Shown here piece by piece: positions 8,970 through 10,820 of a stretch of DNA of 11,649 bases. The stretch covers positions 1-11,649 of the IMG/VR virus record IMGVR_UViG_2582581022_000020, one strand, 5' to 3'. The notes below the pieces were generated by a model. It searched no databases, was not told the DNA's origin, and saw only the letters and a list, made by a program, of their open reading frames with translations. Made by a program: the position numbers and the translations under genes. Each line of letters opens with the position of its first letter. Positions within the stretch are counted from its first letter, which is position 1. This DNA is from a virus (lineage: Duplodnaviria > Heunggongvirae > Uroviricota > Caudoviricetes).

Positions 8970-9458
8970 ATGAGTCTTTTGAATGAAGTTCAGAAATTCA
9001 TTGAAGCCCATCCGGGGTGTACTTCCGGAGACATTGCGGATGCTTTTGCAGGTTACTCACGGCAGCGCGTTCTGCAGTCAGCAAGCAAGTTACGTCAGAG
9101 TGGGCGTGTGGCTCACCGTTGTGAAGGGGATACACGCAGACATTTCCCGCGCCAGACAAAGATATCGCCGGAGGCGGAACGGCAACCAGTTCGTGAAACC
9201 AGACCTGTGCGCAATTTCTATGTCGGCACTAACGACCCGCGGGAGATTTTATGCCTGACCCGCCAGGCTGAAGAACTGGAGTCCAGGGGCTTATACCGTC
9301 GTGCTGCAACGGTGTGGATGGCGGCATTCCGTGAAAGCCACTCCCAGCCAGAACGAAACAATTTTCTGGCGCGTCGTGAGCAGTGTTTACGGAAAAGCAG
9401 CAAGCGCGCTGTATCGGGTGATGAGTGGTATCTGTCAGGGAATTACGTGGGGGCTTAA
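8970..9458 (+). CDS. PerC-family-like transcriptional regulator with an N-terminal extension (162 aa)
   Basis: Motif AEELESRGLYRRAATVWMAAF...RREQCLRK matches the recalled PerC/Pch signature. ATG at 8970 with a G-rich RBS; the ORF-track start at 8964 is GTG. Confidence 0.5.
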   Translation: MSLLNEVQKFIEAHPGCTSGDIADAFAGYSRQRVLQSASKLRQSGRVAHRCEGDTRRHFPRQTKISPEAERQPVRETRPVRNFYVGTNDPREILCLTRQAEELESRGLYRRAATVWMAAFRESHSQPERNNFLARREQCLRKSSKRAVSGDEWYLSGNYVGA

Positions 9459-10111
9459 TGAGTAATAAATATTGCCAGGAGCTGGTGGAACTGCGGAACA
9501 AACCAGCCCATGAACTGAAGGAAGTGGGCGATCAGTGGCGCACGCCGGACAACATTTTCTGGGGAATTAACACCCTGTTTGGTCCGTTTGTTCTGGATCT
9601 GTTCACTGACGGTGATAACGCCAAATGTGCTGCGTATTACACGGCGGAAGACAACGCGCTGGCGCATGACTGGTCAGAACGCCTTGCGGAGCTTAAAGGT
9701 GCTGCCTTTGGAAATCCCCCATACAGCCGCGCCAGTCAGCATGAGGGGCAATACATCACCGGCATGCGTTACATCATGAAGCATGCCAGTGCCATGCGTG
9801 ATAAGGGCGGGCGCTATGTTTTCCTGATCAAAGCTGCCACCAGCGAAGTGTGGTGGCCGGAAGATGCAGATCATATTGCTTTTATTCGCGGGCGTATTGG
9901 TTTTGAACTGCCTGCCTGGTTTATCCCGAAGGATGAGAAGCAGGTGCCGACAGGCGCTTTCTTCGCTGGTGCTATTGCTGTTTTCGACAAGACCTGGAAG
10001 GGACCGGCAATCAGCTACATCGGGCGCGATGAACTTGAGGCATGTGGTGAGGCGTTTCTGGCGCAGGTTCGCCTGCAGGCGGAAAAGCTGGTCAGGGAGA
10101 TGGCGGCATGA
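9458..10111 (+). CDS. dam: Phage-type DNA N6-adenine methyltransferase (Dam family)
   Basis: Catalytic FGNPPYS motif; N-terminal WRTPDNIFWGINTLFGPFVLD typical of the phage Dam family; ATG at 9458 overlaps the upstream TAA (TAATG). Confidence 0.85.
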   Translation: MSNKYCQELVELRNKPAHELKEVGDQWRTPDNIFWGINTLFGPFVLDLFTDGDNAKCAAYYTAEDNALAHDWSERLAELKGAAFGNPPYSRASQHEGQYITGMRYIMKHASAMRDKGGRYVFLIKAATSEVWWPEDADHIAFIRGRIGFELPAWFIPKDEKQVPTGAFFAGAIAVFDKTWKGPAISYIGRDELEACGEAFLAQVRLQAEKLVREMAA

Positions 10112-10434
10112 CGACGTTAACTCAATGCCAGCAGCAGGTGCTGGATATGCTGATTTCTTATCAGAAAGAGCGTGGCTTCCCGCCAACCAATCAGGAGGTG
10201 GCAACCATGCTGGGATACCGTTCGGTGAATGCAGCGGTGGAGCATCTTCGCGCACTGGAGAAAAAAGGCGTCATCACGATAAAGCGTGGCGTGGCCCGGG
10301 GGATCACGCTTCATACCGCAGTGAAGGACGACGACAGCGAAGCGGTCGGTATCATCCGCGCACTGCTTGCCGGTGAGGAGAACGCCAGGTTGCGTGCAGC
10401 CCACTGGTTACATGAGAGGGGCTTGAAAGTATGA
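10108..10434 (+). CDS. LexA N-terminal DNA-binding-domain protein lacking the S24 peptidase domain
   Basis: LTQCQQQVLDMLISYQKERGFPPTNQEVATMLGYRSVNAAVEHLRALEKKGVI..RGI.L is collinear with E. coli LexA residues 1-70; the protein ends at 108 aa. ATGA coupling. Confidence 0.75.
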   Translation: MTTLTQCQQQVLDMLISYQKERGFPPTNQEVATMLGYRSVNAAVEHLRALEKKGVITIKRGVARGITLHTAVKDDDSEAVGIIRALLAGEENARLRAAHWLHERGLKV

Positions 10435-10820
10435 AGTTGATCCTTCCTTTCCCGCCCAGTGTGAACACGTACTGGCGACACCCCAACAAAGGGGCATTTG
10501 CTGGTAAGAGCCTGATAAGCGAGGCGGGGCGAAAATTTCAGAGCGCGGCGTGCGCAGCAATAGTTGAGCAGTTACGTCGTCTGCCGAAACCAACGTCGGC
10601 ACCTGCTTCAGTGGAGATCGTGTTGTTTCCGCCGGATAACCGGATCCGTGATCTGGACAACTATAACAAGGCGCTGTTTGACGCCCTGACCCACGCGGGT
10701 GTGTGGGAAGACGACAGACAGGTGAAAAGAATGCTGGTGGAGTGGGGACCGGTTATCCCGAAAGGGAAGGTCGAGATCACTATCAGTAAGTACGAGAAAA
10801 CGGCGGGTGCAGCCGCCTGA
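10431..10820 (+). CDS. rusA: RusA Holliday-junction resolvase
   Basis: LPFPPSVNTYWRH N-terminus and catalytic DLDNYNKALFDALT motif; ATGA coupling with the upstream gene. Confidence 0.85.
   Translation: MKLILPFPPSVNTYWRHPNKGAFAGKSLISEAGRKFQSAACAAIVEQLRRLPKPTSAPASVEIVLFPPDNRIRDLDNYNKALFDALTHAGVWEDDRQVKRMLVEWGPVIPKGKVEITISKYEKTAGAAA

Follow-up and report, generated by a model that had tools for sequence, protein, structure and literature searches.

The stretch of DNA analysed here, called the window throughout, spans positions 1 to 11,649 (11,649 nucleotides) of the IMG/VR virus record IMGVR_UViG_2582581022_000020, from a virus of the Caudoviricetes. Pfam searches and reading of the open reading frames (ORFs) identified the window as early-region DNA of a lambdoid prophage that is SfV/mEp460-like and has a cI repressor of the S24 type. 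Our analysis concerns a block of three genes in this region, and above all the middle gene, whose product resembles the DNA-binding head of LexA and which lies between a DNA methyltransferase gene (dam) and rusA. The first-pass annotation had placed a Dam methyltransferase, a LexA head-only protein and RusA in one coupled block at 9458-10820 on the plus strand. All three assignments hold (PF05869, PF01726 and PF05866), as does the coupling of the genes, through TAATG, ATGA and ATGA junctions. The features of the block are as follows.

9458-10111, plus strand: phage N6-adenine DNA methyltransferase, 217 amino acids (aa); PF05869, E=1.2e-45, 155.7 bits against a cutoff of 28.1
9713-9724, plus strand: NPPY catalytic motif IV, methyltransferase residues 86-89; from the sequence and its translation
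10108-10434, plus strand: LexA DNA-binding-domain-only protein, 108 aa, PHROG 362 family; PF01726, E=2.9e-19
10222-10266, plus strand: recognition helix alpha3 of the LexA-like protein, residues 39-53 (SVNAAVEHLRALEKK); from alignment to LexA and the predicted helix 40-52
10297-10305, plus strand: wing residues R64-G65-I66, the same as in LexA; from the family and LexA alignments
10330-10416, plus strand: C-terminal hairpin of two helices (residues 75-88 and 93-103) that LexA lacks; from the predicted structure and family conservation
10431-10820, plus strand: RusA-family Holliday-junction resolvase, 129 aa; PF05866, E=1e-14, 55.6 bits against a cutoff of 22.8

The first 65 residues of the LexA-like protein cover the whole of the LexA_DNA_bind profile PF01726 (positions 1-65 of 65), the N-terminal domain of Escherichia coli LexA (1lea) matches it with E=6.5e-16, and it is 49-51% identical to residues 1-69 of E. 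coli LexA. No Pfam match to Peptidase_S24 (PF00717) was found in the protein, and the chain ends at residue 108. In LexA, the S24 peptidase domain carries the Ser119/Lys156 dyad and is also the dimer interface. The earlier description of the protein as collinear with the LexA N-terminal domain and devoid of the autopeptidase was thus accurate. Against the TIGR00498 lexA equivalog model the protein scored 70.5 bits, below the cutoff of 110.95, and covered positions 1-91 of 203. Strictly speaking, the protein falls outside the LexA family, since the peptidase domain that defines the family was tested for and is absent. It matches phrog_362, "transcriptional repressor", from end to end (E=1.6e-59, with residues 1-108 aligned to positions 1-106 of the 106 in the profile).

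An AlphaFold (AF2) model of the single chain, built on 30 diverse relatives, had a mean predicted local distance difference test (pLDDT) score of 83. Helices were predicted at residues 6-22, 28-35 and 40-52 and strands at 56-58 and 66-68, and in a Foldseek comparison the model superposed on LexA in its complex with DNA (3jso, 3jso_A) at 0.8 A over 67 residues. In E. coli LexA, residues S39, N41, A42, E44 and E45 are listed as DNA-binding (PMC13416735), as are R52 and K53 (PMC4807011). Alignment to E. coli LexA gave S39, N41, A42, V44, E45, K52 and K53 at those positions in the window protein. The alpha3 positions that are invariant among six aligned LexA proteins (S39, N41, A42, A43, H46, L47 and A49) are identical in the window protein in seven cases out of seven. 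Residues S39, N41 and K53 and the wing residues R64-G65-I66 are invariant across an alignment of 30 diverse members of the family. Contacts between the wings set the spacing of the SOS box in the LexA-DNA complex.

Compared with E. coli LexA, or with the N-terminal fragment left by its autocleavage, the window protein has the same fold and the same key DNA-contact and wing residues, and it is collinear to about residue 87-91. It differs in lacking the S24 domain, and hence RecA*-stimulated autocleavage, in having V44, and in continuing as a hairpin after residue 74. The hairpin was modelled with good local scores (pLDDT 86-88 for residues 81-100), and its conserved positions in the family are small or hydrophobic (A79, I83, L86/L87, A93, A97 and L101). 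The tail has no Pfam match. The Foldseek neighbours of the whole chain are MntR/DtxR/MarR-type dimers, in which the dimer is formed by helices that follow the winged helix-turn-helix. Because a two-helix hairpin has no core of its own and because of these dimeric neighbours, we infer that the tail acts as a dimerisation element replacing the C-terminal dimer interface of LexA. The earlier proposal that the protein heterodimerises poorly with LexA and displaces it found no support, given that the C-terminal domain through which LexA dimerises is absent and the tail is an unrelated hairpin. Separately, many proteins of 140-350 aa recovered in the searches (P0133, P0148, P0151, P0152, P0157, P0161 and others) have a tandem pair of LexA_DNA_bind domains but lack a peptidase domain. 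Each would be a "dimer" in a single chain, which is another answer to the problem of a head without the C-terminal domain.

Between head and tail, both HMMER and hhalign stretch the alignment to about residue 87 of LexA, including an Ala-Gly pair, at low confidence. In this stretch LLA88-G89-EE of the window protein is set against VAA84-G85-EP of the LexA cleavage region. Intermolecular cleavage by LexA is known, and the extended alignment could be read to mean that the linker is a protein decoy, occupying the active site of the S24 peptidases of LexA, UmuD or cI-type repressors, or of the proteases that clear the N-terminal fragment of LexA. We consider this very unlikely. Aside from the low confidence of the extended alignment, roughly half of the family lacks the Ala-Gly pair, the segment is predicted to be helical rather than strand or loop, and a decoy would have no need for invariant DNA-contact residues. 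It is possible that A88-G89 is a vestige of ancestry, and not a cleavage site.

The LexA-like gene is under purifying selection. The ratio of nonsynonymous to synonymous substitution rates (dN/dS) was 0.07-0.08 against its close relatives in mEp460 and in the prophage of E. coli MS14385, and below 0.6 in every divergent pair with an estimable synonymous rate; a value of 0.64 was obtained only between two near-identical E. coli copies that have very few changes. Intact copies of the protein cluster as 2527 and 782 member sequences. These values contradict the idea that the gene is a functionless, decaying remnant of a captured lexA, a view to which we give almost no credence. Collinearity with only the first ~90 residues of LexA would be expected of such a remnant, but the protein is intact and of constant size (105-135 aa) across the Enterobacteriaceae with its novel tail conserved, and it is present in the functional phages SfV, SfII, mEp460, mEp390 and cdtI and in Stx2 phages.

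The setting of the gene bears on when it would be expressed. The other features of the window that are relevant here are listed below.

minus strand of the window: PrtN-like gene, exonuclease, Ea22-like gene, yfdR, yfdQ and yfdP-type genes
6072-6725, minus strand: cI-type prophage repressor (HTH_3 + Peptidase_S24); PF00717, E=3.7e-25, and PF01381, E=1.1e-15
6760-6789, plus strand: pR-like promoter TTGACA-18-TACATT upstream of cro; consensus scan, 10/12 matches
6821-7018, plus strand: P22-Cro-type cro; PF14549
8964-9458, plus strand: PerC/YfdN-like gene; PF06069, E=8.8e-10
10840-11649, plus strand: KilA-N domain gene (antirepressor-like), next in the operon and reaching the end of the window; PF04383, E=2.4e-22

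The order of genes on the plus strand is cro, a CII-like gene, a replication gene, the PerC/YfdN-like gene, dam, the LexA-like gene, rusA and the KilA-N gene, the last of which is followed in relatives by DUF968 and then the antiterminator Q. As read from the sequence, the TAA stop of the yfdN/PerC-like gene overlaps the ATG of dam in TAATG at 9456-9460, the dam stop and the start of the LexA-like gene overlap in ATGA at 10108-10111, and the TGA of the LexA-like gene overlaps the ATG of rusA in ATGA at 10431-10434. No terminator-like site was seen on the plus strand from the pR-like promoter (6760-6789) as far as 10840. The pR-like promoter is the likely source of transcription for the whole block, and dam, the LexA-like gene and rusA are, by their arrangement, part of one translationally coupled early-right operon. 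As induction of S24-type cI repressors runs via RecA*, the prophage is likely to be RecA*-inducible. In the record of SfV, -35/-10 signals for dam are marked within the preceding gene (29523-29549). The equivalent segment of the window (9367-9393) is nearly identical, with the annotated -35 hexamer one base apart (TTCTTG against TTCTGG), and dam and the LexA-like gene may have an additional internal promoter there.

At E<=0.001 an exhaustive search recovered 4602 proteins, of which the majority are genuine LexA. Among them is a distinct set of 105-135-aa proteins that share the tail and come from Escherichia, Citrobacter, Salmonella, Cronobacter, Klebsiella, Enterobacter, Atlantibacter, Kosakonia and Scandinavium. 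A scan of genome contigs with the family alignment and the pattern LTxRQQEV found mostly genuine host lexA, with family members only in loci L017-L019 and L037. This is because LTxRQQEV is common to LexA, and the scan, dominated by host lexA, is useless for statistics.

Two contexts of the family were distinguished. In type A, which includes the window, the LexA-like gene lies within the pR operon and is followed by RusA, an antirepressor-like gene (KilA-N or Rha/ANT), DUF968 and Q. The gene upstream varies: it is a PF05869 methyltransferase in E. coli and Cronobacter, PF05869 and then PF00145 in Salmonella, PF02086 in Atlantibacter and Kosakonia, and a replication gene in mEp390. In type B, the proteins are longer (118-135 aa) through an N-terminal extension, and a small conserved ORF (PHROG 1813) lies just before the gene. 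In four type B lineages a perfect SOS box is present in the intergenic region upstream of the PHROG 1813 ORF, as follows.

Klebsiella (L002) at 5387, and phage Kp4865-4 at 3388: SOS box TACTGTTTATTTATACAGTA, with dinI between the box and the PHROG 1813 ORF
Scandinavium (L037) at 2780: SOS box TACTGTATGAATATACAGTT, with dinI between the box and the PHROG 1813 ORF
Enterobacter (L015) at 5562: SOS box ACCTGTACATTCATACAGTA, no dinI; the box comes right after a TTGCAA-17-AATAAT promoter-like site
Salmonella (L014) at 5563: SOS box TACTGTTTATATATACAGTG, no dinI; a terminator lies just upstream of the box

No terminator-like site was seen on the plus strand between dinI and the LexA-like gene in the Klebsiella prophage. 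Over 10 non-redundant loci with the gene, CTGT-Nx-ACAG was enriched at x=8 only (14 observed, against 2.2 +/- 1.4 expected), and none of the other half-site spacings from CTGT-N0-ACAG to CTGT-N20-ACAG was enriched. An Rfam search with the dam-LexA-like-rusA block and with the SOS-box leaders of relatives gave no match. DinI is another SOS damper. In several lineages the LexA-like gene thus appears to belong to the LexA regulon and to travel with DinI, and the type B context independently supports a part for it in the SOS circuit. The published work on Klebsiella DinR deals with the chromosomal dinI, not with the prophage copy.

These same neighbourhoods bear on the idea that the protein is a partner of its neighbours, either as a small DNA-binding factor that aids or regulates RusA or as a C-protein-like regulator of the upstream methyltransferase. 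The start/stop overlaps couple the gene to both dam and rusA. Of the ten lineages examined, nine have RusA no more than one gene downstream (E. coli, mEp390, Cronobacter, two Salmonella, Atlantibacter, Kosakonia, Enterobacter and Scandinavium), and a methyltransferase lies directly upstream in five lineages even when it is non-homologous (PF05869; PF05869 then PF00145; PF02086), with a PF00145 methyltransferase one gene further up in a sixth, Salmonella L014. However, Klebsiella prophages have the LexA-like gene without RusA, no methyltransferase lies upstream in mEp390, Klebsiella or Enterobacter, and RusA resolves junctions by itself, as a homodimer. In the nin regions of lambdoid phages genes are normally packed tightly and modules swapped, and adjacency is weak evidence of a shared function. 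We therefore regard a neighbour partnership as improbable. The methyltransferase is the replaceable neighbour, and RusA, DUF968 and Q are the constant ones. Because the methyltransferase is swapped or absent elsewhere, the unit of "Dam + LexA-like + RusA" implied by the first-pass annotation stands as an operon segment and not as a demonstrated functional system.

Our preferred reading of the middle gene, held tentatively and as somewhat short of probable, is that it encodes a RecA-insensitive LexA paralogue that would re-repress SOS-box promoters. From a LexA-like head without a peptidase, and from the residues, predicted fold, selection and contexts given above, we infer every further step, namely DNA binding, SOS-box specificity, dimerisation and a physiological effect. 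In such a scheme the paralogue would keep the winged helix-turn-helix that reads SOS boxes and would have exchanged the S24 autopeptidase and dimerisation domain for a short hairpin, most likely serving self-association. Once the S24-type cI is inactivated, the gene would be transcribed from pR with cro, the replication genes, dam, rusA, kilA-N and Q, and its expression would coincide with cleavage of host LexA. The protein would be uncleavable, since it has no Peptidase_S24 match and ends at residue 108. Having no cleavage machinery, it would escape removal through RecA* and re-occupy CTGT-N8-ACAG operators, and the host SOS regulon would be shut again during lytic growth while RecA* persists. 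The LexA-controlled genes of co-resident elements would likewise be re-repressed. In prophages of the Klebsiella, Scandinavium, Enterobacter and Salmonella type, a LexA-controlled promoter would give an SOS-induced, RecA*-independent switch-off of SOS, with DinI in two of the lineages, and the protein and DinI together under SOS control would be a negative-feedback device in these type B prophages. Dam and RusA share the operon and need not share the function. The non-inducible LexA mimic of the first-pass annotation is compatible with everything computed, in that the helix and wing are kept, the peptidase is missing and relatives lie behind SOS boxes; it is carried forward as a hypothesis in which binding is presumed.

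Several observations weigh against a RecA-insensitive paralogue. The E44 of LexA is V in the window protein and positions 44 and 45 vary in the family (position 45: E14 D6 L6), and DNA specificity may thus have drifted in some lineages. The window holds no exact SOS box, and hits with one mismatch occur at chance (6 against 4.3); the prophage part of the closest complete relative has no SOS box either. What the SOS boxes upstream of relatives can prove is, at most, that host LexA controls these genes, and not that the phage protein binds there. The isolated N-terminal domain of LexA binds DNA weakly (PMC4807011), so the model hangs on the dimerising role proposed for the tail. Lastly, the only characterised phage protein that consists of the LexA N-terminal domain alone, gp6 of the Bacillus thuringiensis tectivirus GIL01, is an activator with a different operator (PMC6182141). 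An SOS-box target carried by this type of phage was considered and rejected on the lack of an exact box in the window and in the closest complete prophage. The targets of the protein would, for the same reason, be operators of the host or of co-resident elements.

GIL01 gp6 is also the model for a different explanation, in which the head has been retuned to a non-SOS phage operator and activates or represses phage genes (for example, in delayed-early or late timing), leaving host SOS untouched. Like the window protein, gp6 is a phage-encoded LexA winged helix-turn-helix without a peptidase, produced from an early operon; this truncated LexA homologue binds GaCACAnnTGTGaC and activates the late promoter P3 (PMC6182141). 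Proteins with only the LexA N-terminal domain are common in phages of many hosts, and the BFVD includes tectiviral, mycobacteriophage and uncultured-phage examples. The missing SOS boxes and the variable positions 44 and 45 noted above are in keeping with such a regulator, and a different dimerisation element could impose another half-site geometry. On the other side, gp6 and the window protein are distant: they matched only in a profile-to-sequence comparison (hhalign, 96.6% probability, 33% identity), and a pairwise BLAST between them gave no hit. The recognition helix of gp6 is diverged (VSHKTAHRYLMQL, with K38 critical), whereas the window protein keeps a LexA-type helix and wing that are far nearer to LexA. 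Unlike the window protein, with its conserved helical tail of 35 residues, gp6 has 66 aa and no C-terminal hairpin. Late genes in the phage of the window depend on Q, and since late transcription is supplied by this antiterminator three genes downstream, a late activator would be unneeded. CTGT and ACAG at other spacings were not enriched in the loci with the gene, and no candidate phage operator was found. We judge a gp6-like regulator to be the main rival of the preferred reading, though unlikely. The window protein belongs, from its domain content, to the phage-encoded LexA-head-only kind and, within it, to PHROG 362, a separate enterobacterial family that has a tail of its own.

From a mobile element, a RecA-insensitive LexA paralogue would pursue the same end as DinI-like proteins and GIL01 gp7, namely to damp or reshape the SOS response. 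DinI-like proteins and gp7 act on the RecA or LexA protein, whereas the window protein would act on operator DNA. More generally, it is possible, although we put this forward with a little more reserve than the role of the window protein itself, that enterobacterial temperate phages hold dedicated RecA-proof LexA paralogues that close the host SOS response, the SfV type in the lytic phase, after the loss of host LexA, and the Klebsiella/Scandinavium type as an SOS-induced cassette with DinI that turns SOS off again and sets the threshold of induction. Rivals under LexA control, for example colicins and prophages whose antirepressors are LexA-controlled, could be silenced by such paralogues.

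If this is correct, an override of the host DNA-damage response would be carried by many of the isolates of E. coli, Shigella, Salmonella and Klebsiella, a large fraction that takes in lysogens of Stx2 phages. It would bear on antibiotic-induced mutagenesis, induction of Shiga-toxin phages, colicin release and competition between co-resident prophages, all via LexA. The protein and GIL01 gp6 would then also be mirror images of each other, with one LexA head kept as an uncleavable repressor and the other made into an activator. If the protein does not bind SOS boxes, the block would be a well-known nin-region module with one uncharacterised small regulator. The block is ordinary as sequence; its biology is of moderate interest, given how widespread the LexA-like gene is and how easy the test.

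The spread of the block is considerable, a point that the first-pass annotation had missed: it is a long-known, annotated module that about half of the complete E. coli genomes contain. The 1.6-kb dam-LexA-like-rusA block is 96-98% identical in 51 phage records, and the phages carrying it include SfV, SfII, mEp460, cdtI and many Stx2 phages. Of 5426 complete E. coli genomes, 2673 have a match to it, and in 1688 of these the match covers >=80% of the query. The block has long been known as sequence and has been annotated by homology (dam-orf42-orf43 in SfV). The middle gene is orf42, "unknown", in SfV, "LexA DNA binding domain protein" (gp46) in mEp460, and "LexA family transcriptional regulator" or even "LexA repressor" in RefSeq. 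SfV orf42, mEp460 gp46, PHROG 362 and the RefSeq "LexA family transcriptional regulator" are the same gene, with nothing of substance to tell them apart, and the names are homology-based. No experimental study of SfV orf42, PHROG 362 or the enterobacterial family was found in the literature searched.

Among complete prophages, the nearest is an SfV-like myovirus that E. coli MS14385 carries integrated at dusA; in it the block is followed by DUF968, antiterminator Q, lysis and Mu-like tail genes. In the MS14385 locus (L097) this prophage begins at about 18070, ~4 kb from the host lexA-dinF operon (13502-14110). The closeness to lexA-dinF is probably a coincidence of the attachment site.

The two genes that flank the LexA-like gene would be ordinary accessory functions of the nin region. 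The methyltransferase scored 255.5 bits against TIGR01712 (cutoff 97) and matched the PADLOC MTase_II model over its full length (6e-157), and its SfV homologue carries the name dam in its record. No restriction gene was seen adjoining it in the window, and a sequence search of the PDB found no relative. It is predicted to be an orphan enzyme of the GATC type. PADLOC gave the LexA-like, RusA and PerC proteins no defence-system assignment. The window RusA aligns to E. coli RusA (1q8r) with E=3.2e-17 and conserves the RDLDN and DD acidic residues; the Asp residues of E. coli RusA in those motifs are catalytic. Against NF007305, the model of E. coli RusA itself, it scored 68.6, below the cutoff of 200, and its predicted function is junction resolution. 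During these comparisons we noted that the PF05869/TIGR01712 methyltransferase is labelled "phosphoadenosine phosphosulfate reductase" in the RefSeq records NC_019716, NC_021857, NC_003444 and NC_049941 and in phrog_33262. This label is probably a misannotation propagated from fusion proteins.

Further SOS-box-like sequences were seen elsewhere in the relatives. A PF01555 (N6_N4) methyltransferase gene downstream of Q has a near-consensus box (TACTGTAAAAATAAACAGTG) within the first 30 nucleotides of its coding sequence. Boxes of this type are found in SfV (L100, 34172-34187), in mEp460 (L001, 41023-41038) and in loci L008 (10312), L009 (10446), L014 (8741) and L037 (8883). The gene occupies the position that stx has in Stx phages, and in SfV one terminator lies further upstream, after Q, and another directly after the gene. 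It looks like a methylase moron under LexA control that is conserved across several genera. Exact CTGT-N8-ACAG sequences with AT-rich spacers are also present inside two S24-type cI genes, that of mEp460 (CTGTTTTTACATACAG at 31972-31987; cI at 31506-32153, minus strand) and that of Cronobacter (L005; CTGTTTTTATATACAG at 2192-2207; cI at 1723-2424, minus strand). These may reflect coding constraint or a LexA site within cI.

In the window itself, the program-called ORF of 226 aa at 4601-5281 (minus strand) has no Pfam match and its C-terminal part corresponds to YfdP of relatives; its true start is probably internal. In E. coli MS14385 a frameshifted gene lies in the region adjoining yfdP. The Klebsiella prophages (L002-L004) have, at 1-1542, an AAA_15/AAA_21 ATPase gene and then a DUF4435 gene, ~4.5 kb upstream of the operon of dinI and the LexA-like gene, a pairing that we take to resemble the PARIS defence pair. 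In the Salmonella prophage L014, a Cas1-family gene (PF01867) adjoins an AcrVA2-like gene (PF26125) on the minus strand at 9794-11390, just past the late-region methylase.

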